Sequence record: MH791411.1
Strand: one strand, 5' to 3'
DNA length: 64,000 bases
Origin: Escherichia phage Ecwhy_1
The position numbers and the translations under genes are program-made. The notes below the pieces were generated by a model. The model made no database searches. It was not told where the DNA came from and worked only from the letters and a program-made list of their open reading frames with translations. Positions 1 through 63,963 of the stretch are shown piece by piece (position 1 is the stretch's first letter; each line of letters starts with the position of its first letter).

Positions 1-2741
1 CTATTACTGGTGATCTGACCGTATCTGGAACTGTTACCCCTGGTGCAATTGACCTAAGTACTACCGATATTAGTTCTAAATCCCTAAGTACTACTGAAGG
101 TGCTACAATTGGTGGTGACCTAGTTGTTAATGGTTCAATTGATTTAAGTTCTTCCAATGTTTCAGCAATTACCCTTGCTAGTTCTGGTAATACTACCGTT
201 GGTGGTAACCTAGTACTAACAACTGGTGTTGTAACTGGCAGCCCATCTGTATCTGGCAACCTTTCAGTTGCAGGTACTGCGGCAGTAACTGGTGCAACTA
301 CCCTAACTGATATCGTAAATATCGGTAAGAAAGTAACTGTAAGCACTGGTGGTATTCAAGTAGTTGCAGGTGGTATTAATACCGACGCTATATTAGTATC
401 CGGTGATACAACTTTAAACAACACTACTGTAAACACTACCTTAAATGTAACTGGTCAAAGTACAGTAGCTGCACTAAGTGCTGCATCTTTGAATGTATCT
501 GGTGATAGTACTGTTCAAAAACTAACAGTTGAAGGTGAATTGGTTCCACAAGGTGGTATCGACCTAACTGGTGCAGATATTTCTGCTAATAGTCTTGCAA
601 CTGCTTCAACAATCACTGCAACTGGACTAAGCACACTAAGTGGTGGTGTAAGTACTACTAATGTTACTGCATCTGGTACAGTGAATGCTGGTAGTTTGGA
701 TGTTACTAACAACGCAACCGTTGGTGGTAATTTGGGTGTAACTGGTTCATTAACTTCTGGTCCATTGAGTGTAACAGGTATTGCGAATATTACTGGTGTA
801 ACAACTGTTGGTTCATTGGTTTCCGGTGCAGTATCTGGTAGTACTGGTACATTTAGTTCAACATTAGGTGTAACTGGTGCAGCTACATTTGACAATGACG
901 TAACTGTTGAAGGTGTATTCACCCCAGCAGGTGGTTTAGACCTAACAACTTCTGATATTACGGCTAAGAGTTTGTCAGTATCTGAAACTATTCACTCTGA
1001 TGGTGCAGCTTCCTTTGGTGGTAACACAACAGTAGGTGGTACATTGGGTGTAACTGGTGCAGTAACTGCTCCATCGGCAACCCTAAGTGGTACTGGTACT
1101 GCACTAGCAGTAACTAATAATGCAACTATTGGTGGTACATTAGGTGTAACTGGTCAAGCATCACTTGGTTCTATAGTAACTTCTGGCGTTTCTGCAACAA
1201 GTGGCTCTTTCAGTACTACTCTTGGCGTTACTGGTGCTGCGACATTTGGTAACGATGTAACTGTAGTTGGAACACTAACTCCTGGTAGCTTAGATCTAAC
1301 TGGTGCAGATATCTCTGCTAAAACACTAACTCTATCTGAAACATTAAATGCAACAGGTAATACTACCCTTGGTGGAACATTAGGTGTAACTGGTTTAGCA
1401 ACAATTGGTGGAACACTAACGTCTGGTGCAGTAACTGCTCCATCTGCAACCTTGAATGGTTCAGGTACTGGTCTAGCAGTAACTAACAACGCAACCGTTG
1501 GTGGAACATTAGGTGTAGTTGGTCAAACAACACTAGGTTCTGTTAAAACTGGTGCAACTCTAACAGTTGGTACACCATTAGGTGAGCAGCCTGAAACTGT
1601 ACAGATTATGCCAGACACTTATATTGCTGGTAAACTACGTGTTGAAGGTGGTATTAACGCAGATATCGATGTTGGTGGACAAACACTAGAACCGTTTGCA
1701 GTAATAGCATCTGATTCTTTATCTTCTGCTGGTAATATTACTGCTGGTGCAGCAATTATTTCAAGTTCTGCAACAATTGGTGAAGTCGGTTCACAAAACA
1801 ACAACCTAATCGTTAATGGTAACGTTGTAAACAACGGTAACTTCACTGTTACTGGTGTACTAAATGCACAATTGAACCAAGCAGATTCCGATGTAGCTGT
1901 TAAGTCTTTGACTGCAACTAACAACGTATCTGCTGGAACCACATTAAGTGCAGGTACTGCAATTACTGCTGGTACTTCCATCACTGCAACTGGATTACTT
2001 AAAGGTAATACTTTAGAAGTTACTACTACTGGTTCATTTGGTGGTTTAGTAACTATGTCAAGTGGTGCAAATATCACTGGTGCAATGACCACTGCGGGTA
2101 ACATAACAGTGGGTGGCAATATCACTGCAACTGGTACTGCTGGATTCGCTGCAACAACCGTTTCTACAATTACAACAACAGGTTTGGCTACAATTGCAAG
2201 TGCATCCATTACTGGTAACGCAACAGTAGGTGGAACACTAACTGCGAATGGTAACGTAACATTAGGTGACGCAGCGGCAGACGTTCTAACCGTTAATGCA
2301 ACTTCATCATTTAAAGAAAATGCTGTGTTTGATAAGGCAGTAACAGTAACTGGTGCACTAACCACTACTAATGCTAACTTAACTACTACAACAGTAACTA
2401 CCAAAAAGTATGATGTAATCCCAACTCAAGTTACATCATCAGTAATTGCTCCAACCGGAACATGGACTCCAGATGGTACAAGTAACGTATACTTCATCAC
2501 TCTAGACCAAGATACCACGTTGGCTCCAATTACTGGCCTAATTGGTGGTGGTAAAGCTGCATCAGTATACATCTATGTTAAACAAGATACAACTGGTAAC
2601 AGAAACTTTACAACTGATGGTACTTATGCTGTTGTTGATGGTGAACTAAACAAAACTGCTGGTAGTGTGACCATTTACCAAGTAATTTATGATGGTGTAA
2701 GTCCAGTTACTGATTTGTTCATTGCACAACGTACTGCTTAA
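1..2741 (+). CDS. repeat-rich fibrous virion protein (tail-fibre-like), 5' end outside window
   Basis: Frame 3 is open from the first bases of the window to TAA at 2739-2741, so the listed ATG at 489 is internal. Gly/Thr/Val/Ser-rich protein with reiterated modules (TPxxLDLTxxDIxAKSL, GGTLGVTG, AVTAPSATL, LAVTNNATVGG). Confidence 0.7.
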   Translation, partial: ITGDLTVSGTVTPGAIDLSTTDISSKSLSTTEGATIGGDLVVNGSIDLSSSNVSAITLASSGNTTVGGNLVLTTGVVTGSPSVSGNLSVAGTAAVTGATTLTDIVNIGKKVTVSTGGIQVVAGGINTDAILVSGDTTLNNTTVNTTLNVTGQSTVAALSAASLNVSGDSTVQKLTVEGELVPQGGIDLTGADISANSLATASTITATGLSTLSGGVSTTNVTASGTVNAGSLDVTNNATVGGNLGVTGSLTSGPLSVTGIANITGVTTVGSLVSGAVSGSTGTFSSTLGVTGAATFDNDVTVEGVFTPAGGLDLTTSDITAKSLSVSETIHSDGAASFGGNTTVGGTLGVTGAVTAPSATLSGTGTALAVTNNATIGGTLGVTGQASLGSIVTSGVSATSGSFSTTLGVTGAATFGNDVTVVGTLTPGSLDLTGADISAKTLTLSETLNATGNTTLGGTLGVTGLATIGGTLTSGAVTAPSATLNGSGTGLAVTNNATVGGTLGVVGQTTLGSVKTGATLTVGTPLGEQPETVQIMPDTYIAGKLRVEGGINADIDVGGQTLEPFAVIASDSLSSAGNITAGAAIISSSATIGEVGSQNNNLIVNGNVVNNGNFTVTGVLNAQLNQADSDVAVKSLTATNNVSAGTTLSAGTAITAGTSITATGLLKGNTLEVTTTGSFGGLVTMSSGANITGAMTTAGNITVGGNITATGTAGFAATTVSTITTTGLATIASASITGNATVGGTLTANGNVTLGDAAADVLTVNATSSFKENAVFDKAVTVTGALTTTNANLTTTTVTTKKYDVIPTQVTSSVIAPTGTWTPDGTSNVYFITLDQDTTLAPITGLIGGGKAASVYIYVKQDTTGNRNFTTDGTYAVVDGELNKTAGSVTIYQVIYDGVSPVTDLFIAQRTA
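36..1560 (+). repeat. in-frame tandem repeat array (units of roughly 110-120 codons) inside the fibre gene
   Basis: Successive protein units beginning near nt 36, 546, 921 and 1275 share the same motif order (TPxGxLDLTxxDIxAKSL, GGTLGVTG, AVTAPSATL, LAVTNNATxGGTLGV). Confidence 0.7.
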
Positions 2742-23543: not shown

Positions 23544-23576
23544 AAAAAAAGACCCCATATAGGAGTCTTTTTTTTG
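23544..23576. terminator. imperfect hairpin flanked by A-run and T-run (bidirectional terminator-like)
   Basis: aagac-ccc-atat-agga-gtctt (23549-23569) with aaaaaaa upstream and tttttttt downstream. Confidence 0.45.
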
Positions 23577-24420: not shown

Positions 24421-24639
24421 TTATTTGGAATTATACAAGCAATACAAGTATACCATAGGAGCAAAATGTTCGGTATCAACTAAGTATATTAACTGGGTGT
24501 CATATATACCGTACAAATCTCGAAATTTATCTCTGTACAGCAACAATGACTTATTGTTGTGTGGGTCAACCCAGTACTTTAAGTCATTGTAGTGCAACGT
24601 GTTATTACGGTAACCTGATAATATTTGTTTTTTAGCCAA
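24421..24639 (-). CDS. hypothetical small protein (non-ATG start?)
   Basis: 72-aa ORF whose first codon appears to be TTG with no clear RBS. Confidence 0.3.
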   Translation of the reverse strand: MAKKQILSGYRNNTLHYNDLKYWVDPHNNKSLLLYRDKFRDLYGIYDTQLIYLVDTEHFAPMVYLYCLYNSK

Positions 24640-25009
24640 CTTTTTTACAATTACTTAGTAAATGCATGATGGCATCAGCGGTAAATGGTCCCAGTACTAA
24701 AACTTCTTCTCCATTACCGAAGATACTCAATGGTACAGATTGTTGTCCTGCTAGATATTCGATTTGTTCTAATTCGAAAATGTCATCAGCAGCATAAACA
24801 ACCTGTTCCATTTCATTATCTTTAATCCATGACTGCCAATGTTCTTTAAACTGCTTCGCTTCGTATTCCAGTACATAGTTAGGTGATTCTGGATTGTACT
24901 GATGTAGCATTGTCATACCAGCCATAACCAGTTCTTTTGGTGATGGAGTAGAATCTTTCAGTACTACGATAGCTTGGATAGTTTTAACTTTAACGTTTTG
25001 AGCAGCCAT
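24632..25009 (-). CDS. hypothetical protein
   Basis: 125-aa ORF. Confidence 0.45.
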   Translation of the reverse strand: MAAQNVKVKTIQAIVVLKDSTPSPKELVMAGMTMLHQYNPESPNYVLEYEAKQFKEHWQSWIKDNEMEQVVYAADDIFELEQIEYLAGQQSVPLSIFGNGEEVLVLGPFTADAIMHLLSNCKKVG

Positions 25010-25021
25010 TAGATACCTCTA

Positions 25022-25330
25022 TTATAGAATGATTTTGTTATCAGGAACAATCAGTGCTGGTTTTTCTTCGATAGCCTTGATTGCTTCAACATAAGCTTCA
25101 ACTAGTGCAGGGTTTGCATCGCTGATGCTAATGATGTTGGATTTATAAAAAATAACGCCTTTTTCAGAACTAATGAATTCTAGATAATCACGTAGAATGA
25201 TTTCACCTTGTTCGTCAGTACCTAGCTGTGCTGGGTAGTTAACTACTACTGCTTCTGGTGCATCATTTTGTAGAATTGCTAGTACTGGGCCAACGCTGTT
25301 GATGTTTAGTAGTTTAACGGTCATAGTCAT
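25022..25330 (-). CDS. hypothetical protein
   Basis: Track start 25339 is TTG; the ATG at 25330 has an AAGGA RBS. Confidence 0.45.
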   Translation of the reverse strand: MTMTVKLLNINSVGPVLAILQNDAPEAVVVNYPAQLGTDEQGEIILRDYLEFISSEKGVIFYKSNIISISDANPALVEAYVEAIKAIEEKPALIVPDNKIIL

Positions 25331-25349
25331 TTTTGTCAAGTCCTTTTGT

Positions 25350-25829
25350 TTATTTTAGAATGTATAAGTGTTTTTCTGCATTAACCAGTCTGTGGTCAAT
25401 GATTTCTTTGATAACGTTCCAGTTACCACCGCCTAAATCGGCTCCAATTTTCGGGAAGTGTACATGGATCTCTTGTGGTTCATTTTTAATGAATTCATTC
25501 ATCGAGTTAAATGCAAGGTCAATCGCATCATAACTTACATACTTCTTACCATCATTACCATAATACTCTTGTGTAATGCAGTTTGCAATAATTAAGTTAT
25601 TATTTGGTGCTGCATAGACAACTTCACCCAATTTCAAACCATTCTGATTGGTATAACGTGTATGATACACATCATATGCCAATTGGTGACGCTTTCTTAA
25701 TTCTTTTGCAAAACCAGAACCCATCTTACCCTGAGCGTTACAACCATGAGCGATAATATGTAATGCAGTTTGATCAGTAGTAACAGTACTGAATAAATCA
25801 AACAGATTACCACAATGTTCATGTATCAT
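25350..25829 (-). CDS. macro-domain protein (ADP-ribose binding/processing)
   Basis: 159 aa; IIAHGCNAQGKMGSGFAKEL and HVHFPKIGADLGGGNW match the macro-domain Gly-rich ADP-ribose-binding loops; GGAGAA RBS. Confidence 0.7.
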   Translation of the reverse strand: MIHEHCGNLFDLFSTVTTDQTALHIIAHGCNAQGKMGSGFAKELRKRHQLAYDVYHTRYTNQNGLKLGEVVYAAPNNNLIIANCITQEYYGNDGKKYVSYDAIDLAFNSMNEFIKNEPQEIHVHFPKIGADLGGGNWNVIKEIIDHRLVNAEKHLYILK

Positions 25830-25839
25830 TATATTCTCC

Positions 25840-25869
25840 GAAAAGAAAGGACTCTGTAATCAGAGTCCT
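25840..25869 (-). terminator. rho-independent terminator
   Basis: Hairpin aggactctg-taat-cagagtcct (25848-25869); on the minus strand followed by a U-rich tract. Confidence 0.65.
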
Positions 25870-25880
25870 TAATTTATATT

Positions 25881-26138
25881 TTATTCTTCTTCACCGAATC
25901 GAATTTTTTTCAATTCTTTTCGTTGTTTGCGAGCAATGGTACTTTTGTGAAGTCTATTACCACGTTTTGTGTCTTTCGTAATGTACCATGAATCTTCTGG
26001 TGCATTATAATCACAATAACCATCTTCTGTAATCGTCCCTAAGAAAGCAGACTTTTTAGGAATGGATGTTTGAGCTTTAGCAGCGAATTGGCCTTTTGCT
26101 AATTGTTCACGAAAACTGAGCATAATAGTATCTCCCAA
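25881..26138 (-). CDS. hypothetical small basic protein
   Basis: 85-aa ORF, Lys/Arg-rich C-terminus. Confidence 0.45.
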   Translation of the reverse strand: MGDTIMLSFREQLAKGQFAAKAQTSIPKKSAFLGTITEDGYCDYNAPEDSWYITKDTKRGNRLHKSTIARKQRKELKKIRFGEEE

Positions 26139-26168
26139 ATTGTTACGAAGAACTTGTGTTCTTCATTA

Positions 26169-26411
26169 TTATTTAGGGTTGCTCGAAACCTCTACTGAAG
26201 CGATGAATGCCAAAATATCATCTTTACTGAAAGCTTCAATAATATAAGCAACCGCTTTATCGTACTGTTCTTTCTTAGTAGTGTATTCTTTCATTTTGTG
26301 AATTTTACGTTGTGCTTTAACTTTTGCAGCTTCCATATCAGGCATTTTAAATTCAACACCCAATGTGTCAGCTAAATGTTTTGCACGAGATGATACTTTA
26401 TCAATATTCAT
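26169..26411 (-). CDS. hypothetical small protein
   Basis: 80-aa ORF. Confidence 0.45.
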   Translation of the reverse strand: MNIDKVSSRAKHLADTLGVEFKMPDMEAAKVKAQRKIHKMKEYTTKKEQYDKAVAYIIEAFSKDDILAFIASVEVSSNPK

Positions 26412-26659
26412 TAATTCCAGCGACCTTCTTTAAGACCTTCAACGAAACCAGTACAGCCACCTGGAACGTAAACATCGTTTACGAAAATTTGTGGAACCTG
26501 TCGTACTGGCTCACCACATAGTTCAGATAGTTTAGCACCATCAATACCAGCGGTAACAATATCGATAAACTCCATATCAAATTTGTTATTTTCACATACT
26601 GCTTTAGCAGTGTCGCAGAATTTACAACCAGTAGTGCGACCATAAATTTTAACTTTCAT
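26411..26659 (-). CDS. glutaredoxin/thioredoxin-like protein (NrdC-like)
   Basis: 82 aa; CxxC active site (GCKFC) near the N-terminus and a C-terminal GG motif, typical small glutaredoxin layout. Confidence 0.7.
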   Translation of the reverse strand: MKVKIYGRTTGCKFCDTAKAVCENNKFDMEFIDIVTAGIDGAKLSELCGEPVRQVPQIFVNDVYVPGGCTGFVEGLKEGRWN

Positions 26660-27059
26660 TTCTTTTCCCTTTATTTCGTTGAAACATTGTAACAGCCTTT
26701 ATTATACTGTTACACATTCGTTCAGTCAAATACTTTTGACAATCTAGTACATCAATGTACATGAACTTATCCAATTCTGGGTGACTTCTACCATATCTGT
26801 TTGTGTAAGTACTTTTACACTCCAACTCTTCTGGTATAGGCTTATCTTTGGCTGTATAGAAAAATAAAACTAAACGTTTCCCCTTTCTATACGATACATC
26901 ACCAAGAAACAGAAGATCATCTTCATCGATTTCATATCCTGTCTCTTCGTAGCATTCACGTACAGCAGCCTCTTTAAATGTTTCTGTACCTTCAGTTTTA
27001 CCTTTAGGTAAGTCCCAGTGATTCTGTCCGTGTTGTATGCCCGATAAGTATCTGACCAT
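26649..27059 (-). CDS. Nudix hydrolase
   Basis: Complete Nudix box GKTEGTETFKEAAVRECYEETGY (Gx5Ex7REUxEExGU); track start 27062 is GTG, ATG at 27059. Confidence 0.75.
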   Translation of the reverse strand: MVRYLSGIQHGQNHWDLPKGKTEGTETFKEAAVRECYEETGYEIDEDDLLFLGDVSYRKGKRLVLFFYTAKDKPIPEELECKSTYTNRYGRSHPELDKFMYIDVLDCQKYLTERMCNSIIKAVTMFQRNKGKRNES

Positions 27060-27168
27060 CACGATAAAATATTATACCACAGCTATAACGCATAATCTTA
27101 TCTCTTTATCATCAAGTGATGTTCAGATACTAGTAATTATATCAGAAGATGTTAACTTGTCCCAGCTT

Positions 27169-28284
27169 TTAGAACATTTGCTTGATTGCTTCAATACGCA
27201 ATTCAGCAACAAAATCACGAATCTCCGATGTTTGGAGTTCACCATCTTTCACTAACTGCTGAATATCAGGTAATTCAACATCAGTATAACGATCATAAAC
27301 TTTAATAATCAAATCTTCAAGTTCAGAATCAATTTCTTTGTTCAAAATGAAGTTTTCCAGTACTTTGTAAAGGAAATCTTCACCACCATTGTTTTTGATA
27401 TTCATATCCAGTAAGATTTGTCCCATTTCAACTGGGGTCTTCTTACGGAAGGTTTTAATATCTTCACGGAAACGCTTGATGTAATTACTAAACTTAACGT
27501 ACTTAACTGGAACCTTAATGGAACCGTTAAGTACTGAATCATTATTTACTTCTTCATTTTCAAGAAGTACTGTCCATAAGAAATATGGTTTATATTCTTC
27601 TGTACAATTTGCAGCGATAGAATCAATTAATTCCAGACGTTTCTTGGTAACTGGAACTGTAGTAAATGCCTTTTCGTAATAACCAAATTGTACCAGAGTT
27701 TTGATAAACTTGGAAGGGTTTTCTTCAGAAAGTGCTTTTTCGAATTCAACAAAAACACGATCTGGAACTAGATGGTCTAGTTCACCAGTACTAACCATAT
27801 CTTTACACATTGTCATAGTATCATCATGGATTGTAAAGTCGGAGTAACGCGTAGCGAAACGGGCCAAACGTAGAACACGCAATGGATCTTCTTTAAAGTG
27901 TTCTGATACATGACGAAGTACTTTGTTCTTGATATCAGCTTTCCCGCCATAAGGGTCGATGTGAATCTGGAGTACTGGATCATATGCAATACTATTGATT
28001 GTGAGATCACGACGATATAGATCTTGTTCTAGTGTCACACCTTTTGTATTCACTTCGAAGCCACCATATCCAGTACCAGTTTTACGCTCAGTACGGGCTA
28101 ATGCGTGTTCATTACCTTCTGGACTTAGATATACAGGGAAATCCTTACCTACTTGCTTGTATCCAATACTTTGCAAGTATTTAATATCGGATTCGGTAGC
28201 ACCGACAATAACATAATCTTTGTCTTTTGCACGGATACCCATTAAACGGTCACGAACGTAGCCACCAACCAAATACTTTTTCAT
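27169..28284 (-). CDS. tRNA nucleotidyltransferase (CCA-adding enzyme / poly(A) polymerase family)
   Basis: 371 aa; N-terminal GGYVRDRLMG and DKDYVIVGAT match the class II CCA-adding/PAP head domain. Confidence 0.7.
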   Translation of the reverse strand: MKKYLVGGYVRDRLMGIRAKDKDYVIVGATESDIKYLQSIGYKQVGKDFPVYLSPEGNEHALARTERKTGTGYGGFEVNTKGVTLEQDLYRRDLTINSIAYDPVLQIHIDPYGGKADIKNKVLRHVSEHFKEDPLRVLRLARFATRYSDFTIHDDTMTMCKDMVSTGELDHLVPDRVFVEFEKALSEENPSKFIKTLVQFGYYEKAFTTVPVTKKRLELIDSIAANCTEEYKPYFLWTVLLENEEVNNDSVLNGSIKVPVKYVKFSNYIKRFREDIKTFRKKTPVEMGQILLDMNIKNNGGEDFLYKVLENFILNKEIDSELEDLIIKVYDRYTDVELPDIQQLVKDGELQTSEIRDFVAELRIEAIKQMF

Positions 28285-28285
28285 A

Positions 28286-28408
28286 TCATTCCCCCATCAA
28301 CCAATCACGTAGACGTTCCCAGAAGCCTTTTGGCTGATATTCTGGATATTCATATTCATCTGTTCCTTGCTCGGAAACACCCCAATCTTCTTCTAATACT
28401 GTAATCAC
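28286..28408 (-). CDS. conserved micro-ORF, copy A (about 40 aa, ends DWLMGE)
   Basis: GTG start with GGAGG RBS; stop TGA one nt before the CCA-enzyme ATG; paralogue of copy B at both nucleotide and protein level. Confidence 0.4.
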   Translation of the reverse strand: MITVLEEDWGVSEQGTDEYEYPEYQPKGFWERLRDWLMGE

Positions 28409-28419
28409 AATGCCTCCAA

Positions 28420-28857
28420 TTAAATTAATCTATCACGTAGACGGTCGTAATATTTTGCATGTATATCTAGTATACACTGAAATGATGGATAGTCAATACT
28501 AAATGTATCATCAATGAACATGTACTGAAGAAGTGTTTCTGGTCCATTATCAACAACTGGTAATGTCCCTTCTTTTTTTGATAGGGTGTGCCACATCAAC
28601 TCACTTTCAATATGGTGAGTTGCGTATGTCAATTCAATCTTACTTTTTCGTAGTAAAATTAACAATTCATCATTGTCATCGAGTGCATTACGAAATTTAA
28701 TACGAACTGTACCCTGGAAATTATTAGTGTACATAACACGATGATGATTGTATGAAATTAAACCACGTCTTTCAGTACTGATTTCATGTTCAGCAAAGTA
28801 CTTTAACGTTTCATTAAATTTTGGAATTTTACTTGCGTCCACCAATGTAATCCTCAT
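28420..28857 (-). CDS. hypothetical protein, member of a tandem paralogue pair
   Basis: C-terminal LLQYMFIDDTFSIDY parallels YLQYQFIDDTFGFDF in the neighbouring gene; start 28857 or 28863 uncertain. Confidence 0.5.
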   Translation of the reverse strand: MRITLVDASKIPKFNETLKYFAEHEISTERRGLISYNHHRVMYTNNFQGTVRIKFRNALDDNDELLILLRKSKIELTYATHHIESELMWHTLSKKEGTLPVVDNGPETLLQYMFIDDTFSIDYPSFQCILDIHAKYYDRLRDRLI

Positions 28858-29236
28858 ATACATGATATACGTTCATTATACTATTATATAGTTCAAAGTC
28901 AAATCCAAATGTGTCATCAATGAACTGGTATTGCAGATATTCTTCATATGAAGCATCAATTGGTAATGATCCAGCACGAATATCATCTGATTTAAAATCG
29001 TCAATGTATCTTAATGTTATGTCTTCATCAACAGTAATATCTATCATCAACGTATCGTCACTGTACCAAAGGTTATGTATACGGATGTAAAGTTTCTTAG
29101 CACGATTAAAACTAGATACATTGGTATTGCGATGGAGTTTATCTAAGTTGAAGTAAAAACCAGGCTCGTTTTTACTTATGTTTTTCATATGTTCTGCAAT
29201 CGAATCAATTATATAATCAATGTTGAATGTTCTCAT
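28829..29236 (-). CDS. hypothetical protein, member of a tandem paralogue pair
   Basis: Paralogue of 28420..28857; the ATG at 29236 overlaps the upstream stop (ATGA); track start 29242 is TTG. Confidence 0.5.
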   Translation of the reverse strand: MRTFNIDYIIDSIAEHMKNISKNEPGFYFNLDKLHRNTNVSSFNRAKKLYIRIHNLWYSDDTLMIDITVDEDITLRYIDDFKSDDIRAGSLPIDASYEEYLQYQFIDDTFGFDFELYNSIMNVYHVYEDYIGGRK

Positions 29237-29418
29237 AAACAAATCTCATAGCGGTTTGTGTTTGGATTGTAGCAATAGGTATCATTAATTTTAACACCAG
29301 GTTTAAGTGTTATTGTTGTTCCTACTTCAGTACTGGGTTCTGCATCACAATAAATCATCACACCAACGCCACAGATTAAAGCTAAGATACAAATAATAGC
29401 ACATATTGTATATTCCAT
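29233..29418 (-). CDS. small membrane protein
   Basis: 61 aa from the ATG at 29418; N-terminal hydrophobic helix ICAIICILALICGVGVMIY; start overlaps the stop of micro-ORF B (TGATG). Confidence 0.45.
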   Translation of the reverse strand: MEYTICAIICILALICGVGVMIYCDAEPSTEVGTTITLKPGVKINDTYCYNPNTNRYEICL

Positions 29419-30361: not shown

Positions 30362-30694
30362 TTACTCTTCGTCTTCAGTCAAGTCTTCTTGAACTGGATG
30401 TTCGGGGTGGTTACGGCGATGCAATTTGATGCTTTTGTCTTTACCTAAGACAGTTTCCATTTTTTCAAATGAATCACCAATTGCTTTGTATAAATCTGCA
30501 TCATCGGCGGTGACAATCTTACCACCTGATGTTAAAGTTACGGAATATTGATTCTTATGCTCTTTCTTCACATGAACACCGATATAAAGTACTGAAGAAT
30601 CACTAAACTTCGTTAGTGCATTTGCTTCTGCATGAATCGCGTCATTGATTGCTGGAGTAATATCAACATTACCTTGGATAACTAAATCTAGCAT
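30362..30694 (-). CDS. hpf: ribosome hibernation promoting factor / RaiA-family protein
   Basis: 110 aa; aligns along its length with E. coli HPF as I recall it (ITG-N-V-ITxA near the N-terminus, a G-x-I-xA-x-DxYxAIDxxxxKL core, Lys-rich tail). Confidence 0.7.
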   Translation of the reverse strand: MLDLVIQGNVDITPAINDAIHAEANALTKFSDSSVLYIGVHVKKEHKNQYSVTLTSGGKIVTADDADLYKAIGDSFEKMETVLGKDKSIKLHRRNHPEHPVQEDLTEDEE

Positions 30695-39322: not shown

Positions 39323-39736
39323 TTACATGTATACCTTTTTCAAATCCTTGGAACAACGGTCAAAAATTGTGTTGATGAATTCGACATCCTCTTTGATATT
39401 GGAGTCTATAGCATCATTCTCGTTTCTTGTTGTGTTCCTGTATTTGTGTTCAGGGTGATTGTATACCACCTTGACTACATTATTTAGGTCTACAAAAAAT
39501 GACGATTTTTGCGTATAGGAAGCCTGAAGCTTGATGAGTTTACCATCGTTTTGTAGATTAGTCTTGTGAATTAGTTCTTCAATACCATCTAAATGGCTAT
39601 AGCTATCCTGTTCTTTGACGAATGTAACAGTTACCAGTACTGACTTCTCATCTCCAAAGTCAGAGATATTTTTAACAGCACTGATGATTTCTAAGTTTGA
39701 AAAATCTAATTCTTTTAGCATTACAAATATTTCCAC
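39323..39736 (-). CDS. hypothetical protein
   Basis: 137-aa ORF. Confidence 0.45.
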   Translation of the reverse strand: MEIFVMLKELDFSNLEIISAVKNISDFGDEKSVLVTVTFVKEQDSYSHLDGIEELIHKTNLQNDGKLIKLQASYTQKSSFFVDLNNVVKVVYNHPEHKYRNTTRNENDAIDSNIKEDVEFINTIFDRCSKDLKKVYM

Positions 39737-40077
39737 AAAGTTCGATAAGTGATAATTTCTTCTCTGGTAACAGAAACTTCATAGCACTTAACACCATCAG
39801 TTTCATTTCTGAATGGTTCTGCTGGTCTATCTTCTGTTAAACCTCGTTCATACGTACAATGATAATATTTGTTCGTGTTCATGTCAAGAAAAACTAGATC
39901 AAATTCTTCTGTCCATCGTCTATGCCCTTTACTTTCATTACTAATGATTTTGTACTTAACATCGGGATTGAATGATTCAGTACTGTCATCCCATGTACCA
40001 TAGTCAGTATATTCATCATCTTCATCTAACTCTGCCAGATGCCACATTAACTGCGGTAAAAAGATTTTAGATTTCAT
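39721..40077 (-). CDS. hypothetical protein
   Basis: 118-aa ORF; ATG at 40077 with GGAGAA RBS. Confidence 0.5.
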   Translation of the reverse strand: MKSKIFLPQLMWHLAELDEDDEYTDYGTWDDSTESFNPDVKYKIISNESKGHRRWTEEFDLVFLDMNTNKYYHCTYERGLTEDRPAEPFRNETDGVKCYEVSVTREEIITYRTLWKYL

Positions 40078-40088
40078 TTATTTTCTCC

Positions 40089-40120
40089 AAAAAAATAGGG
40101 ACTCGATTTCTCAAGTCCCT
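40089..40120 (-). terminator. rho-independent terminator after the HNH gene
   Basis: Hairpin agggact-(10 nt)-agtccct (40097-40120); on the minus strand followed by attttttt. Confidence 0.55.
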
Positions 40121-40131
40121 ATCATAACATA

Positions 40132-40743
40132 TTAATTGTGATTATTCAATTTCTTTTGTTCTTTTTTTAGAGCTTTCATATGTCGTCCAAAATCACGAAC
40201 ATGCCATATATGGTCGGTTTCCCATAGTTCTGTACGTAAACGGCGTTCTTCCAATTCTTCTGGCGTAGGAATTTTAGATTTCTTCTTATCTTTATTGAAA
40301 AAATCATTCATATGTTCTTCCAGTAGATTTCTACCCTTAACTTTTTCCAGGAATTCATCTACTGATTCAGTTTTATTAGAACGAAGACTGTTACAACGTG
40401 AACACATGGTGTTGTAATTTGACTCTAAATCAGGTCCACCCTTAGATGCTAGTTGGTTATGATCTACTGTCATCAGTACTTCATATAGACCACAAACTGC
40501 ATAGACATTTAAGTGAGGTTTACCATATACCGGATCAGTGCTATGTGAACGCTCAATGCGAACTTCAGTGGCTTCAATACCACACGCAACGCATTTACGA
40601 TTCTTAACGAATGTAAGTACTTTTTGTGGGAAGTATCGGAAAGTAACACCGTTATATGTATAGCGTTTCATCTGTGTACTTCTTTGATTTAACTCATCAA
40701 GAAGTGATAGTTTGGCAACATAGTAGACCTGATATTTTGACAT
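40132..40743 (-). CDS. HNH-family endonuclease (free-standing, possible homing endonuclease)
   Basis: 203 aa; CVACG ... VDHNQLASKGG ... NYNTMCSRCN gives the HNH motif with zinc-binding cysteines. Confidence 0.65.
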   Translation of the reverse strand: MSKYQVYYVAKLSLLDELNQRSTQMKRYTYNGVTFRYFPQKVLTFVKNRKCVACGIEATEVRIERSHSTDPVYGKPHLNVYAVCGLYEVLMTVDHNQLASKGGPDLESNYNTMCSRCNSLRSNKTESVDEFLEKVKGRNLLEEHMNDFFNKDKKKSKIPTPEELEERRLRTELWETDHIWHVRDFGRHMKALKKEQKKLNNHN

Positions 40744-41911: not shown

Positions 41912-43150
41912 TTATTTTTTACTGTACCATTGCATTTCACGGATATCTAATAGTACCTTCGTAGCCAACTTTATGTTTGGTCGCTTCGGTAGATGGGTCT
42001 TATGATACGCCACATTTCGGATGTAGTCAACCTTTTCGTTGAAATAATCCATAACTTCTTGATACAACCACTTCCCGTTACGAATGTCCATCAACATAGC
42101 AGCATCCGGTCGGTGAACTTGGATGATACCAGTTTCAAGTGCTTCCTGTGCTGTATTCAGCAGCCTGACTGTATGCATTGCGTGTTTACAATCATAACCG
42201 TGGTGTGATTCAAGAATAGCACGTTTGGCATTACGATTCTGCTTCCATTTGTGATAACTCTTACGGTTCTCACTATTTTCTTTGTATTCTTTTTCATTGA
42301 ATTTTACAATGAGTTCAGGACGAACTTTCAATTCTTCTGTAGTACGTTCTTTGTTGAAGTAACGTAGTGAACCATCAGCATTCACTGTACTTTCATTCGG
42401 GTTGATAATTACCCCAAAGATGTTTTCACCGTAATGGATTAGTTCATATCCAGAATTGTAATTCAATAAATTGAAATCACGATCTAATACTTTATCAGTA
42501 CTATAATTATGTACTAAACGTACAAAATGATATTGTTTCAATGCTTGTGTTGAAACTAATTGTAATGAAGTATCACGCATGTATTTTTCAAAATCAATTT
42601 TTGTAGCATTGAATGGGTGAAGATTGGATTTATTCAAACGGTCAACCAAATACTGCGGAAATGTATCATACATCCATGAAAGTACTTCGTCAACTGGATG
42701 TTCTTCTAAAATTTCATTTAGTTTACGTTCAGCAATTCGTTCCTTATCGAGCCAGCCGTGGTGATTAGACATACGCTTAACCTGATTGTATGCATATCCA
42801 CTGTATGAGTGTGCAATCTTTGAACTCAATAATTGCTGATTGAATGAGCGTAGATAGTCATAGATTTCAGTACTTTCTACGATGTGTTCCGGTTTAACCC
42901 ATAGTGATTCAAGAATGTTTGGGTTAGCTTCAGTATACAGACTTAAGTACTGATTGATTTCATAAAATTTAGTATCTTCTTCAGAAGTATCTGAAACTTC
43001 CTTAACATTAAAAAAAGGAGTTAGGATATATTCTTTGTTTGCAAGGAAGATACCACGATAATCTGTATCACTTTCTGGTGTGCTTGTGCCATACGCCTGT
43101 GAACCAGCTAAGTGTTTCACAATAGTTTGTTCTAGAAAATTGTTTTTCAT
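41912..43150 (-). CDS. Pol-beta-superfamily nucleotidyltransferase
   Basis: 412 aa; N-terminal GSQAYGTSTPESDTDYRGIF fits the GS-x(9-13)-DxD nucleotidyltransferase signature. Substrate unknown. Confidence 0.6.
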   Translation of the reverse strand: MKNNFLEQTIVKHLAGSQAYGTSTPESDTDYRGIFLANKEYILTPFFNVKEVSDTSEEDTKFYEINQYLSLYTEANPNILESLWVKPEHIVESTEIYDYLRSFNQQLLSSKIAHSYSGYAYNQVKRMSNHHGWLDKERIAERKLNEILEEHPVDEVLSWMYDTFPQYLVDRLNKSNLHPFNATKIDFEKYMRDTSLQLVSTQALKQYHFVRLVHNYSTDKVLDRDFNLLNYNSGYELIHYGENIFGVIINPNESTVNADGSLRYFNKERTTEELKVRPELIVKFNEKEYKENSENRKSYHKWKQNRNAKRAILESHHGYDCKHAMHTVRLLNTAQEALETGIIQVHRPDAAMLMDIRNGKWLYQEVMDYFNEKVDYIRNVAYHKTHLPKRPNIKLATKVLLDIREMQWYSKK

Positions 43151-57146: not shown

Positions 57147-57391
57147 TGTGCATCCTTTGGAATAGTGTTAAGGCGTGTACGGTTTACAATCTTCCTGCAC
57201 ATGAGATTAAGATCTTGCCCATGACGCATCTCATGGCAAGCATACAATGTACCATCATAGTTAAGTTTAGTCAAATTCTGGCGAATGAACTCTGCATCAG
57301 CCTCCTGAACTTTAGGTGCACAGCCACAGAGAGTAATGGACACAAATATTGTTAATGTAATGAATATATTTTTCATGATATTTTTTCTCAT
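57143..57391 (-). CDS. putative small lipoprotein
   Basis: 82 aa; N-terminal hydrophobic signal ending ITLCGC (lipobox-like). Confidence 0.4.
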   Translation of the reverse strand: MRKNIMKNIFITLTIFVSITLCGCAPKVQEADAEFIRQNLTKLNYDGTLYACHEMRHGQDLNLMCRKIVNRTRLNTIPKDAQ

Positions 57392-58359
57392 TTTGGGCTA
57401 TAACCACTTTTAATTTTAGAAATTACTTTCTTCTCGAAGAACTTACGTGCTTCTTCAATAGTTTTGAATTCTTCACCATCTGTAGTACTGGTTTTACCAA
57501 TAGCACCATACTCAATAATTACTTCACACACTGGAGCATTCAATTCAATATTATAGAATTTGTTCGAAGAACCGTGAACATATTCCAAATGTACATTATC
57601 AGGAATGTTCTGCACATAATCATAGTTCTTGAAGATAATATCAATCATATTTTCTTCACCGCGATCAGGAAATAGTTCAGTATTATTCAGTACTAAACGC
57701 TGTGCAGCACGGAACATATCAAAATATTGTTCACCTTTTTTCAGTTCTTTTGTATCAGAACAGAAATGACCATAGTATTCTACATAATCATTCCAAGGAT
57801 AAATTCCTTCATCAGCAGTTTCAAAAGCGTAAGTTTCATCTTGTGGAACTTTAAAACCACGAGTTTTTGGATGAGAAATTAAGCACAGTGAAATATTATG
57901 ACCGATATCTGAATCATCAGTAATACTACCACCAACCATATGAACAACATTTTTAATACGTTCAAAATCTACATCTTCAATTTCATGATACATTAAATGT
58001 TCTTCAATATTACTTACTAGTAATGAATTACCATTTCCTGCATCGAATTCAAAAATGAAAAGTTCTACACAATCTTCTTCTTTCATTTCAATAGTATCAC
58101 TGAGTTTAATATACTCATTTTTTACTTGTTCAATATTTTCATGAGAACCAAAACTATAACGAGAACTGATATAACTACTACCATCCAACCATCCCATATC
58201 CCAAGGTTCTTCTGACATGTATTCGGTGCTATAGAAATCAGTCAAATCATCTCTCTGAGTACAAACCGTAAGAGAACGAACATTATTAAGACCTTGAACT
58301 TCAAGATTCAGTACTGTAGTGTTGCCGATTTTTTGTTCAGAAATAATTTTAGTTTTCAT
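57388..58359 (-). CDS. hypothetical protein with C-terminal WGR-like domain
   Basis: 323 aa; C-terminal ~80 aa (SSNKFYNIELNAPVCEVIIEYGAIGKTSTTDGEEFKTIEEARKFFEKKVISKIKSGY) follows the WGR pattern, with YGAIG in place of WGRIG. Confidence 0.45.
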   Translation of the reverse strand: MKTKIISEQKIGNTTVLNLEVQGLNNVRSLTVCTQRDDLTDFYSTEYMSEEPWDMGWLDGSSYISSRYSFGSHENIEQVKNEYIKLSDTIEMKEEDCVELFIFEFDAGNGNSLLVSNIEEHLMYHEIEDVDFERIKNVVHMVGGSITDDSDIGHNISLCLISHPKTRGFKVPQDETYAFETADEGIYPWNDYVEYYGHFCSDTKELKKGEQYFDMFRAAQRLVLNNTELFPDRGEENMIDIIFKNYDYVQNIPDNVHLEYVHGSSNKFYNIELNAPVCEVIIEYGAIGKTSTTDGEEFKTIEEARKFFEKKVISKIKSGYSPK

Positions 58360-60532: not shown

Positions 60533-61972
60533 TTACATATTTTCTTCAGCAAATTCTGCCAGTGGTGAACGAACGACACCTTCTAGTTCGATTACACGAC
60601 AACCGTCCCAGTTCTTGAACTTCTCGGTAACATAAGTTAGACCGCTGTTAACTGGACTAATGAATTTAGAGTCAATCTGGCTCAAGTTGCCCATAATAAC
60701 CACTTTACAGTTCATTCCTGCACGAGTCAGGATTGTTTTAGCCTGAGCAGGAGTAATGTTCTGGAATTCATCCACTACTAGGATAGTGTTTGTGAAAGAA
60801 CGCCCACGAACGAAGTTTAGTGCTTTGAACTGGATAACATTACGTTTCATGATTTCTTCGATACTGCCTTGTGGGTTAGCATCATCTTTGTGTAGGAATT
60901 CCAACGCATCAATGGCAGCTCCACAGAATGGAATCACCTTCTCTGCCTCAGAACCTGGCAAGAAACCAATGTCTTCGAATTGGGAATCTTGTGTTTTGGA
61001 GAAGATGATACGGTCGTATTTTTTCTTCTCTAGTACTAGCTCCAGTGCAGTAGCAATGGTGATCAATGTTTTACCAGTACCTGCGGAACCCAACAGTACT
61101 GTTAGATGAACATCAGGATCTAGGATACTGTTGATTGCTAGTGCTTGTTGAATATTCTTAGCCTTAATATCCCACACTTTAGCACGTAGAGCAACAGATT
61201 GTCCAATATCTTGGAATACAAGAATATCTTCTGGTGTTAAAGTACCATCATCTTCTTCAATTGCAGATTGGCCTTCGTACACAAATAGAACATCAGCATT
61301 ATCATATAGGTAATCACCGATGCAAATATTTTGTGGCATGATATGTTCAATCAAGCTTTTTGGAATGTAGTGATACAAACGGCGACCAACTTGTTCAGAT
61401 TGGATAGACACATCAGTTAGATTGCTATACACATCCCAAAAATCTAGGTCGAGGTGATGTTGACCAATGTGAATCAAATCACTATCACCAATCACGATAT
61501 CATGACGATAATCTTGAACTTCCACCCCGTAGCTTAGAGCCTTGATACGCATATTGATATCACGGGTAACCAGTACTGAATCAGTTGCTAATGCTACTAA
61601 AATGATTTTATCATCTGGTACTGTGCTTTTTAGAAGAGTTTGAACTTTCTCTTCGTTACCAGAAGTACGAATTAGTGCTTCAGCTTCTTCGCTTGTAATA
61701 ACAAACAATTTGCTTTCAGGACTCATATTAGTATGAACATCAGCAATATTAACACCAGTACTACTAATTTCTTCATGTGATGCATCAGAAAGGATAGCTT
61801 CAATGTTACGGATTGCAACACGAGCATCACGGGAAACATCCACATTACGACTTTTGATTGAATCCAATTCTTCAAGTACTGTGAACGGTAGAATGATAGC
61901 TGCTCCATCAAAAGCAATGGTAGCATTTGGATCAGATAGTAGTACGTTTGTGTCAATTGTATATTTTTTCAT
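60533..61972 (-). CDS. phoH: PhoH-like ATPase with N-terminal PIN-like domain
   Basis: 479 aa; N-terminal DTNVLL PIN-like start; C-terminal Walker A GSAGTGKT and Walker B VVDEFQN. Confidence 0.85.
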   Translation of the reverse strand: MKKYTIDTNVLLSDPNATIAFDGAAIILPFTVLEELDSIKSRNVDVSRDARVAIRNIEAILSDASHEEISSTGVNIADVHTNMSPESKLFVITSEEAEALIRTSGNEEKVQTLLKSTVPDDKIILVALATDSVLVTRDINMRIKALSYGVEVQDYRHDIVIGDSDLIHIGQHHLDLDFWDVYSNLTDVSIQSEQVGRRLYHYIPKSLIEHIMPQNICIGDYLYDNADVLFVYEGQSAIEEDDGTLTPEDILVFQDIGQSVALRAKVWDIKAKNIQQALAINSILDPDVHLTVLLGSAGTGKTLITIATALELVLEKKKYDRIIFSKTQDSQFEDIGFLPGSEAEKVIPFCGAAIDALEFLHKDDANPQGSIEEIMKRNVIQFKALNFVRGRSFTNTILVVDEFQNITPAQAKTILTRAGMNCKVVIMGNLSQIDSKFISPVNSGLTYVTEKFKNWDGCRVIELEGVVRSPLAEFAEENM

Positions 61973-62662: not shown

Positions 62663-63214
62663 CTATAGATAGCTGATTAGTAAGTTTTCTTTTTGTACAA
62701 GATACTCTAATTCTTGTTTCGCAGTTCCGATGAAGTTCTGTGTCATAAGATTATTATATCCTGCTTCTCGATTTTGTCCCTTCGAATAACGAGAGATGTG
62801 ACATAAATTTACACCAGCCACCTCTGCACTAGCATGTTTGCCATATGCATAATTATCACGAAGTTTTTTAAGTTCAGCATAAGTCATTTCATAACTATAG
62901 CTATGTGAGTGACCCTCTGGAAACAATTCAAGTGATTTTAATGGAGACAGGCGACTTTTGTCAATGATATAGTTCATTTCTTCTTGTACTTCACGTTGTA
63001 ACGCATCTTCTAATGACTTATCAGTACTTTCAACTGTTCCACCACATGCACCCAACAATCCATCCCAACGCACTTGTAGGAGTACTAAGTTAACCACTGG
63101 AATATCATTTAGTTCATAACCAGAGTATGGGGTACATTCTTTTGCATAAAAGAAACAGAATACAAAATTTGCACGTTTCCCCAGTTGTCCCAGTGGTACT
63201 TCAGCTTTACTCAT
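62663..63214 (-). CDS. Nudix-like hydrolase (divergent Nudix box)
   Basis: 183 aa; GGTVESTDKSLEDALQREVQEEMNY approximates the Nudix box (REVQEE core) with altered spacing; ATG overlaps the Sir2-like stop (ATGA). Confidence 0.5.
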   Translation of the reverse strand: MSKAEVPLGQLGKRANFVFCFFYAKECTPYSGYELNDIPVVNLVLLQVRWDGLLGACGGTVESTDKSLEDALQREVQEEMNYIIDKSRLSPLKSLELFPEGHSHSYSYEMTYAELKKLRDNYAYGKHASAEVAGVNLCHISRYSKGQNREAGYNNLMTQNFIGTAKQELEYLVQKENLLISYL

Positions 63215-63963
63215 CGCATTCGTTCCTTAATTATAGTTTCAACCTGTGGAATTGCTTTCGTCGCAGGTTTGATGACCTTCTCATTAAAAAGAAAATCATT
63301 ATCATTTTTTCGGATGTTAACATTTACACTATAGCATGGAAGTGCACCAGCTAGTCTGGACCATACCAGTACTGTATCACTACTTCCAATAACTACAACT
63401 GTATCATTTTCTGTGAGACTTTTCAACACTTCATTTCGTTCTTCATAAATGGGGAGACGTACCCCATCAACGTAGCGATGATACTCACCAATCATCACTA
63501 CATTTGGTTTTGCAAAAACATCAGCTTTAGGGATATATGGTTCATAACCACAATTAATGACATTGTAATCATCAGTATTAATAGAAAAGTTCTCAATTAC
63601 TTCACATAAATTGCCGTGTAGTTTGAGTTCGGTTCCACCAATTCTAGTATATAGATCATCCATATTAGAAGTCATGTGTAAAAAACAATCACCATACAAA
63701 TCTTCTAATGATTTAATAAAGTAATGCATTTCATTAGGATGACATTCACCTAATTTTACACGCAATGTATTATAAAATGAATGAACTATATGATACTTAG
63801 AACTAAGTCGTGCAATGTTACAAACATCATTAATTTTGAAATTGTCCCACAACCCATCATCAAAGCGGAATGGTTCCATCCCGCTCTCAACTGAAAGACC
63901 TGCCCCTGAAATTATAAGTAATCTTTTGTTCCCAGCATTTTGTATAAATTTATCTGATATCAC
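63211..63963 (-). CDS. Sir2-family (sirtuin-like) NAD+-dependent protein
   Basis: 250 aa; ISGAGLSVESGMEPFR, TSNMDDLY, LHG and VVVIGSSDTV match sirtuin NAD-binding motifs; no CxxC zinc ribbon seen; GTG start at 63963 preceded by AAGGAG. Confidence 0.65.
   Translation of the reverse strand: MISDKFIQNAGNKRLLIISGAGLSVESGMEPFRFDDGLWDNFKINDVCNIARLSSKYHIVHSFYNTLRVKLGECHPNEMHYFIKSLEDLYGDCFLHMTSNMDDLYTRIGGTELKLHGNLCEVIENFSINTDDYNVINCGYEPYIPKADVFAKPNVVMIGEYHRYVDGVRLPIYEERNEVLKSLTENDTVVVIGSSDTVLVWSRLAGALPCYSVNVNIRKNDNDFLFNEKVIKPATKAIPQVETIIKERMR

Follow-up and report, generated by a model that had tools for sequence, protein, structure and literature searches.

A putative AdfM-type macrodomain protein and a conserved +1 frameshift in a nearby Nudix gene of an Asteriusvirus jumbo coliphage

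Gene organization of the locus

A stretch of 64,000 nucleotides from Escherichia phage Ecwhy_1 (MH791411.1; referred to as the window) was analyzed, with a focus on a macrodomain gene, a glutaredoxin gene and a Nudix hydrolase gene on the minus strand, which carries almost all of the window genes. The 4-kb region around this locus (24500..28500) showed 99.8% identity with Escherichia phage Turkey3, and 84–97% identity with ~35 other coliphages of 350–386 kb from the genus Asteriusvirus (121Q, PBECO4, and others); by this identity, the source is an Asteriusvirus, a jumbo coliphage of the 121Q/PBECO4 type. Three minus-strand open reading frames (ORFs) were confirmed: 25350..25829 (159 amino acids), 26411..26659 (82 amino acids), and 26649..27062. 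Their domain assignments, which had been proposed from the letters and ORF translations without database searches (referred to as the sequence-only reading), were correct by Pfam, a search of the PDB, AlphaFold2 (AF2), and Foldseek. The RefSeq entry of 121Q labels the orthologues as "macro domain-containing protein (Appr-1-p processing)", "glutaredoxin", and "nudix hydrolase (NudE)", as does PBECO4, and the presence of these genes, which are already annotated, is largely an ordinary finding. The new and unexpected part, which deserves follow-up, is a frameshift in the Nudix gene, whereas the macrodomain/Sir2 finding discussed below is ordinary. The main features are as follows.

25350..25829, minus strand: stand-alone macrodomain protein of 159 amino acids (PDB phmmer search, AF2, Foldseek, homology with T4 Tk.4)
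26411..26659, minus strand: glutaredoxin of the GrxA type, 82 amino acids, with the C-K-F-C motif (Pfam, NCBIfam, match with Grx1)
26649..27029, minus strand: downstream part of the NudE-type Nudix gene, 126 codons and a stop codon, GQNHWDLPKGK..., including the Nudix box (Pfam, tblastn frames, ratio of non-synonymous to synonymous substitution rates (dN/dS))
27030, minus strand: extra C, the frameshift site (alignment, site table of 16 genomes)
27031..27093, minus strand: first 21 codons of the Nudix gene, MRYSCGIIFYRDGQILIGHTT, in frame 0 from the ATG at 27093 (tblastn frames, alignment with 3i7u, codon changes)

The gene order CCA–Nudix–glutaredoxin–x–x–macrodomain was kept in Asteriusvirus, Eneladusvirus, Alcyoneusvirus, and their relatives. 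The locus is best explained as a set of conserved accessory genes of RaK2/121Q-type jumbo phages, and not as a Sir2-linked module.

Macrodomain protein

The product of 25350..25829 scored 17.9 bits with the Pfam Macro family (PF01661), which is under the gathering cutoff of 22 and speaks against the assignment. The PF01661 match is precomputed for many homologues at 45–65% identity, and a sequence search of the PDB (phmmer) found BT1257 (2fg1; 1.3e-15) and SCO6735 (5e3b; 2.3e-10). When the AF2 model (pLDDT 94.4, pTM 0.90; built from a 60-sequence alignment) was used for a Foldseek search, the best match was again BT1257 (2fg1; E 1.7e-12, TM 0.84), further top matches were Poa1p, SCO6735 (5e3b), DarG (5m3e and 5m3i), and TARG1 (4j5r), and 124 PDB macrodomain chains were found at E ≤ 1e-3. 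A profile search of PDB sequences returned the same set: BT1257 (1e-25), SCO6735 (1.6e-18), and Poa1p (1e-13). Since the structural and PDB evidence overrides the sub-cutoff Pfam score, the call stands, and the protein is a genuine macrodomain with the three-layer α/β/α macro fold. The family search that had been suggested as a check was therefore negative at the level of Pfam, and was made good by the PDB sequence and structure searches.

Both of the Gly-rich loops on which the assignment had been said to depend were present: G34-K-M-G-S-G39 and P126-K-I-G129-A-D-L-G-G-G135-N-W. Among 60 homologues, G34, M36, G39, P126, and G129 were invariant, and G134, G135, and W137 were at least 90% conserved. 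Since both loops were conserved, and the model and Foldseek gave the macro fold rather than an unrelated one, the macrodomain assignment held on both counts. N31 and Q87 were invariant in the 60 homologues and in T4 Tk.4. In the alignments with 5e3b and 2fg1, Q87 fell on the Gln of the IGQ motif and N31 on the Asn of the H-x-C-N motif; these correspond to the position of Lys84 of TARG1 and Lys80 of DarG, and to Asn27 of SCO6735, respectively. The protein thus appears to belong to a Gln-type branch of the ALC1-like macrodomains together with Tk.4/AdfM, SCO6735, and BT1257. The loop after this Gln (the 'mobile loop') was present, but was two residues shorter than that of BT1257 in the PDB alignment.

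Among phage proteins, T4 Tk.4 was 32% identical over 122 amino acids (BLASTP, E 1e-13), and the RaK2 orthologue is annotated as Tk.4-like. Tk.4 (AdfM, see below) is likewise a stand-alone phage macrodomain of ~155–160 amino acids with a DarG-like fold, and shares the H-G-C-N, T-Q, and P-x-I-G...G-x-W positions with the window protein; it differs in the low identity, and its gene lies in a different neighborhood, between vs and tk.3. SCO6735 and BT1257, which were the best sequence and structure matches, also carry Gln in place of the catalytic Lys of TARG1/DarG and keep the positioning Asn, whereas they are cellular proteins and the window protein is encoded by a phage; furthermore, Gly87 of SCO6735 had no counterpart in the window protein in the alignment from the PDB sequence search.

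The resemblance to DarG of the DarTG2 system was limited to the macrodomain (5m3e; E 1.5e-9, TM 0.75). In the defence library and NCBIfam, the sole match of the protein was the macro part of DarG: 3.4e-9 with PADLOC, and 26.6 bits (cutoff 250) with NCBIfam antitoxin_DarG, covering positions 19–136 of the 329 profile positions. The DarG profiles have ~330 positions, in contrast to the 159 amino acids of this protein, in which Pfam, PADLOC, and NCBIfam found no DarT-binding C-terminal domain; no PADLOC match to DarT was found in the five ORFs neighboring the gene, and the catalytic Lys80 is replaced by Gln. PHROG 335, which matched the ORF at 1.3e-44, is labelled 'phosphatase', and this label traces to an old A1pp motif annotation.

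Hairpin and small ORFs upstream of the macrodomain gene

Two small conserved ORFs separate the glutaredoxin and macrodomain genes, and a hairpin follows them on the coding strand.

25847..25870, minus strand: terminator-like hairpin AAGGACUCUG-AUUA-CAGAGUCCUU, followed by UCUUUUC (terminator scan, folding energy, covariation)
25881..26123, minus strand: small conserved ORF, phrog_15319 (PHROG 1.6e-47; annotated in Turkey3, 121Q, and relatives)
26169..26411, minus strand: small conserved ORF, phrog_34640 (PHROG 7.2e-37)

The two ORFs had no match in Pfam, PADLOC, or NCBIfam, and PADLOC and NCBIfam scans of four small ORFs neighboring the macrodomain gene gave no matches. The hairpin (dG -15.1 kcal/mol, z -3.26) was unique in the window, and was present in all 16 genomes examined, which represent several genera. 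Among 12 distinct genomes, seven base pairs were invariant and two were compensatory, and 99% of the cells were paired, versus at most 67% for slid controls. The sequence-only reading had given the macrodomain gene its own terminator after it, at 25840..25869; the hairpin is real, but it lies upstream of this gene on the coding strand: past the stop codon of ORF 25881..26123 and 17 nucleotides ahead of the macrodomain ATG. Because this gap is too short for a promoter, expression of the macrodomain gene must come by read-through. The hairpin, probably a leaky terminator, separates the block of the Nudix, glutaredoxin, and two small genes from the macrodomain gene. The nearest terminator-like hairpin downstream was at 23544..23574, past a neck gene. 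A candidate T4-type late promoter (TATAAATT) upstream of the hairpin was dropped, as it was not conserved in relatives. The stem core of this hairpin, GGACU...AGUCC, recurs in another intergenic hairpin at 40099..40118, between ORFs 39721..40077 and 40132..40743 (HNH endonuclease).

Allelic replacement in the macrodomain gene

When compared with phage vB_Ec-M-J, the region of 24.0–28.5 kb was 99–100% identical, except for ~400 nucleotides in the macrodomain ORF at 67–84%. This divergent patch corresponds to 25437..25830 of the window, and identity in its two flanks, which span ~1.4 kb and 2.7 kb, was 99–100%. The allele of the window and Turkey3 showed 71–74% protein identity with every other Asteriusvirus allele, from all of which it differed in the central ~75 residues, and its omega (dN/dS) value was ~0.3, versus 0.07–0.17 among the other alleles; all of the motif residues were retained. 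The window and Turkey3 therefore carry a chimeric allele, produced by a cassette-like replacement confined to the gene. The limitation of the swap to this ORF and the raised omega fit a gene engaged in an arms race, and suggest a target of ongoing host–phage conflict, which bears on host-range prediction. Another divergent patch against vB_Ec-M-J was found at ~28537..28936, in ORFs 28420..28863 and 28829..29242.

Potential physiological role of the macrodomain protein

In T4, tk.4 is reported to be the single gene that becomes conditionally essential on hosts with DarTG2, and a clean knockout was sensitised; it was renamed adfM (anti-DarT factor, macrodomain) (bioRxiv 10.1101/2025.11.20.689424, November 2025 preprint). 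SCO6735 removes the thymidine-linked ADP-ribose made by DarT from DNA, for which it needs Gln85 and Asn27; Gln85 occupies the position of the catalytic Lys of TARG1/DarG, and these two residues, both of which the window protein retains, also let SCO6735 distinguish ADP-ribosylated thymidine (dT-ADPr) from dG-ADPr (PMC9411070). From this homology and the conserved residues, we infer that the 159-amino acid protein is probably an orphan DarG-like DNA ADP-ribosylglycohydrolase of the AdfM kind, acting on dT-ADPr in DNA and against DarT2. In the proposed mechanism, the protein would bind ADP-ribosylated thymidine in phage single-stranded DNA modified by host DarT2, and the active site positioned by Asn31 and Gln87 would hydrolyze the bond between ADP-ribose and the base; free ADP-ribose would be released and phage replication could proceed, while the Nudix–glutaredoxin pair might dispose of the released ADP-ribose. 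Hundreds of phages, among them therapeutic-candidate jumbo coliphages, carry this gene under the name 'phosphatase' or 'hypothetical', and it would thereby be relabelled as a probable anti-DarT2 counter-defence enzyme.

In addition to the low Pfam score and the shorter mobile loop, several points weigh against this assignment. Macrodomains of this class are promiscuous in their substrates, which include protein-Glu-ADPr and O-acetyl-ADP-ribose for TARG1 and ADP-ribose-1''-phosphate for Poa1p. The identity with Tk.4 is only 32%, so that a common function can be transferred by inference only, and nothing in the analysis shows that the hosts of this phage carry DarTG2. The evidence for AdfM itself is genetic only and from a preprint, in which the enzymology was also inferred (bioRxiv 10.1101/2025.11.20.689424). 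Regarding the cooperation with the Nudix hydrolase, tk.4 and nudE lie 5.6 kb apart in T4 and the hairpin separates the macrodomain gene here, both of which weaken the case for one functional module of the macrodomain, Nudix, and glutaredoxin proteins and leave it rather doubtful. No homologue of AdfN (T4 30.3, NADAR) in this phage group was found among the 40 matches listed of 1,511.

The sequence-only reading had regarded the macrodomain gene as the partner of a Sir2-like gene 35 kb away: the macrodomain would process the O-acetyl-ADP-ribose and ADP-ribose made by Sir2, and the locus would be a second one of the same theme. In a sirtuin-centred pathway of this kind, the Nudix hydrolase would then degrade ADP-ribose. 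A Sir2-family gene does exist (63211..63963, minus strand; Pfam SIR2, 71 bits) and is conserved alongside the macrodomain gene in the jumbo-phage group (46% identity in the Yen9-03 copy); the structural relative TARG1 was deposited as 'O-acetyl-ADP-ribose deacetylase 1', and ADP-ribose is a substrate of T4 NudE (RefSeq note). On the other hand, the distance is 37.4 kb, with dozens of genes in between, and the Sir2 gene has a Nudix gene of its own: a Nudt16-like gene at 62663..63214 (minus strand), which it overlaps by 4 nucleotides. Furthermore, DNA-linked ADP-ribose is the substrate of the closest characterized relatives of the macrodomain protein, and the distributions of the two genes differ strongly: macrodomain homologues were found in ~2,470 phage records, with the matches listed being mainly from Tevenvirinae and Pseudomonas, Rheinheimera, and Acinetobacter phages, and Sir2 homologues in ~990, with the matches listed being mainly from T5-like, rV5-like, Vibrio, and jumbo phages. 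As to the co-occurrence that had been proposed as a check, finding the two genes together in the RaK2-like group carries no information, since they are both part of a backbone kept in synteny there. A sirtuin partnership is very improbable, and the Sir2 story, tempting but unsupported, was removed. The overlap between Sir2 and the Nudt16-like gene is in itself a tighter Sir2–Nudix pairing than that first proposed.

Two other functions may be considered. A Poa1p-like phosphatase would clear ADP-ribose-1''-phosphate, the by-product of the Tpt1/KptA 2'-phosphotransferase in tRNA repair, in agreement with the label of PHROG 335 (1.3e-44), the presence of Poa1p among the top structural and profile matches, and the tRNA/RNA-related genes in the window: a CCA-adding enzyme (27169..28284), a Pth2-like protein (24632..25009), and RlaP (41912..43150). 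This label derives, as described above, from the old A1pp motif annotation, and the sequence is nearer to BT1257 (1e-25) and SCO6735 (1.6e-18) than to Poa1p (1e-13); the window showed neither Tpt1/KptA nor a 2'-phosphate-forming ligase, the whole genome not having been searched, and sensitivity to DarTG2 is the sole phenotype so far for the T4 homologue, making this function quite unlikely. A general eraser of ADP-ribosylation on protein or RNA, and not DNA, would reverse the action of phage transferases of the Alt/Mod type or of host defence transferases. Several ADP-ribose linkages are open to macrodomains of the TARG1 and DarG classes, T4 encodes Alt and also Tk.4, and RNA-ADP-ribosylating defences exist (PMC11825919). 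Nevertheless, neither the vicinity of the gene nor the scan of window ORFs yielded an ADP-ribosyltransferase, the Gln and Asn behind the discrimination of dT-ADPr from dG-ADPr by SCO6735 are conserved, and the T4 genetics implicate DarTG2; we consider this alternative unlikely, and an AdfM-type role remains preferred.

Glutaredoxin and its association with the Nudix gene

The CxxC glutaredoxin that had been placed at 26411..26659 was confirmed: the active site is C12-K-F-C15, and the Pfam Glutaredoxin score of 35.7 bits is above the cutoff of 22.9. GrxA was the best NCBIfam family, with 64.8 bits under an equivalog cutoff of 84; the protein is thus a glutaredoxin, but orthology with GrxA is not established. 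Grx1 from E. coli (1ego) matched over the full length (8.9e-10) with shared CxxC, TVPQIF, and GG motifs, and differs in having C-P-Y-C in place of C-K-F-C. The start of the glutaredoxin gene overlaps the stop of the Nudix gene by 11 nucleotides, and the two are fused into a single ORF in Erwinia phage Hallingskeid (227 amino acids; 1778..2461 of the locus fetched) and coliphage EJP2 (225 amino acids; 1784..2461). These fusions suggest a functional link between the Nudix and glutaredoxin proteins, the genes of which, judging from their overlap, appear to be a translationally coupled pair, upstream of the macrodomain gene behind the hairpin. The glutaredoxin may serve the Cys-rich Nudix protein or ribonucleotide reduction.

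Frameshift in the Nudix gene

The canonical Nudix hydrolase assigned to 26649..27059 was confirmed by a Pfam NUDIX score of 45.8 bits and by a complete Nudix box (GKTEGTETFKEAAVRECYEETGY; consensus GX5EX7REUXEEXGU), but not as a single intact ORF. The Pfam match covered model positions 25–99 only, and the ORF as called (start at 27059) lacked the N-terminal strands. The true start is the ATG at 27093, 34 nucleotides upstream of the called ATG and preceded by a purine-rich AAAGAGA resembling a ribosome-binding site; the first 21 codons are in another frame because of a one-nucleotide insertion at 27030. The downstream part lies in the +1 frame relative to the start of the gene, and the unshifted frame 0 ends eight codons past the extra base, at TAA (27004..27006). 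On the coding strand, the insertion is in the context CAT ACA ACA C GGA CAG, in which the frame-0 codon is CGG.

When the two parts were joined, the product could be aligned over its whole length with NudE of the T4 type and with the uninterrupted genes found in Klebsiella phages and Yersinia phage fHe-Yen9-04. The N-terminal strands of the Ap4A hydrolase from Aquifex (3i7u) were also matched, starting at residue 3. T4 NudE (gene e.1), which is homologous over residues 4–113 (38% identity with the repaired protein), hydrolyzes ADP-ribose, ApnA, FAD, and NADH, an activity known for the T4 enzyme only (RefSeq note); the RaK2 orthologue is annotated as nudE. The window gene has a complete Nudix box and differs from T4 nudE in being frameshifted after codon 21 and apparently coupled in translation to a glutaredoxin gene. 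The insertion was found in all eight core Asteriusviruses fetched (the window, Turkey3, 121Q, PBECO4, JNE01, Turkey5, A4, and UE-S1) and in none of eight outgroups (fENko-Kae01, Munch, Hallingskeid, EJP2, Serratia BF, Yen9-04, RaK2, and phiKp_21). The Nudix gene is therefore not one intact ORF but has a conserved +1 frameshift after codon 21, and the current annotations (132–137 amino acids from an internal ATG) describe an N-terminally truncated protein without the N-terminal strands. A pattern scan of IMG/VR for further frameshifted relatives returned only 121Q itself and chance matches, and no report of a Nudix frameshift in Asteriusvirus was found in the literature.

Both halves of the gene were under strong purifying selection. 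The downstream part, in the +1 frame, had dN/dS values of 0.05–0.085 at synonymous rates (dS) of 0.3–2 within the frameshifted clade, versus omega ≥ 1 for the wrong-frame controls. In the 21 upstream codons, seven synonymous changes and one conservative non-synonymous change were observed in frame 0 within the clade (binomial P = 1.3e-4), and the same changes were mostly non-synonymous when read in the +1 frame. The mean omega of the repaired gene was 0.067 in the frameshifted clade and 0.069 in the intact outgroups, and constraint is not relaxed. A decaying pseudogene was rejected on the basis of this equality and of the 126 downstream codons, which contained no stop codons or insertions/deletions at dS up to ~2. 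Sequencing error and transcriptional slippage were also rejected: the site lacks a homopolymer, and eight independent assemblies share the insertion.

Possible decoding of the frameshifted gene

CGG is the rarest sense codon in the phage (4 of 14,927 codons in 58 window ORFs), which is weak evidence alone, since an NGG codon results whichever base is inserted ahead of GG. A 12-nucleotide block at the shift site was invariant in the clade, whereas the same third positions varied in the outgroups; this invariance corresponds to p≈0.04, since approximately one third of the four-fold sites in the rest of the gene do not vary either. There is no homopolymer at the shift site and no re-pairing in the P-site (ACA cannot re-pair on CAC), and no conserved upstream stimulator resembling a Shine-Dalgarno sequence was found in the 16 genomes, among which GGG/GGA/GGT varies. 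As a tentative proposal, which we regard as possible, the gene may be decoded by an efficient +1 shift at ACA-CGG-A, or the enzyme may be assembled from a 29-amino acid strand-donor peptide and the catalytic body. In the former case, the ribosome would pause on CGG and read GGA without P-site slippage, and recoding might set or regulate the level of the Nudix protein; the predicted tryptic peptide spanning the shift at ACA|C|GGA is DGQILIGHTTGQNHWDLPK.

Programmed +1 frameshifting, as in prfB and the Ty3 type, similarly involves two overlapping frames under purifying selection, the fusion of which recreates the ancestral protein, and the Ty3-type shift, which uses a slowly decoded A-site codon without P-site slippage, is paralleled by the rarest codon CGG in the 0-frame A site. 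The present case, as read from the sequence alone, differs in that no stop codon lies at the shift site and that P-site re-pairing and a conserved Shine-Dalgarno-like stimulator are lacking. Bacteria and phages have few +1 recoding sites, most of which came to light by chance. Non-programmed frameshift suppression in E. coli is ~1–5%, and rare Arg codons have been implicated (PMC10861913). Efficient internal initiation at the ATG at 27059, with the predicted N-terminal peptide MVRYLSGIQHGQNHWDLPK or VRYLSG…, is disfavoured because this ATG has no Shine-Dalgarno sequence and none was gained relative to the outgroups, and because the residues encoded in the +1 frame ahead of the shift show no conservation. 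The frameshift has been kept across ~12–17% nucleotide divergence in this region with undiminished selection, and if +1 decoding is true, the gene would provide an E. coli phage example of Ty3-like recoding and a clean natural system for hungry-codon shifting without P-site slippage.

Phage fEgEco12, which shares 97% identity with the window over the 4-kb query region, carries two tandem, non-identical tRNA-Thr(UGU) genes (1988..2141 of the locus fetched), with tRNA-Met and tRNA-Asn genes nearby. Quadruplet decoding by a phage suppressor tRNA was rejected, as both tRNA-Thr(UGU) genes have normal 7-nucleotide anticodon loops. The ACA codon itself is frequently used in this phage, at 22 per 1000.

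Other genes in the window

The genome papers of fEgEco12 and fENko-Kae01 do not discuss the Nudix, macrodomain, or Sir2 genes. Around the locus, several minus-strand genes are related to translation or RNA: the CCA-adding enzyme at 27169..28284; the Pth2-like ORF at 24632..25009, which is annotated as peptidyl-tRNA hydrolase in Turkey3 and has an HHpred note of 97.8% in fENko-Kae01; and an HPF/RaiA gene at 30362..30694. Farther away on the same strand, a nucleotidyltransferase of the RlaP RNA-repair family is located at 41912..43150 and a PIN–PhoH fusion gene at 60533..61972. A protein of 323 amino acids (57388..58359, minus strand), the N-terminal 255 residues of which had no family match, carries a WGR domain at its C-terminus (Pfam, 41.6 bits); this domain is known chiefly from PARPs.

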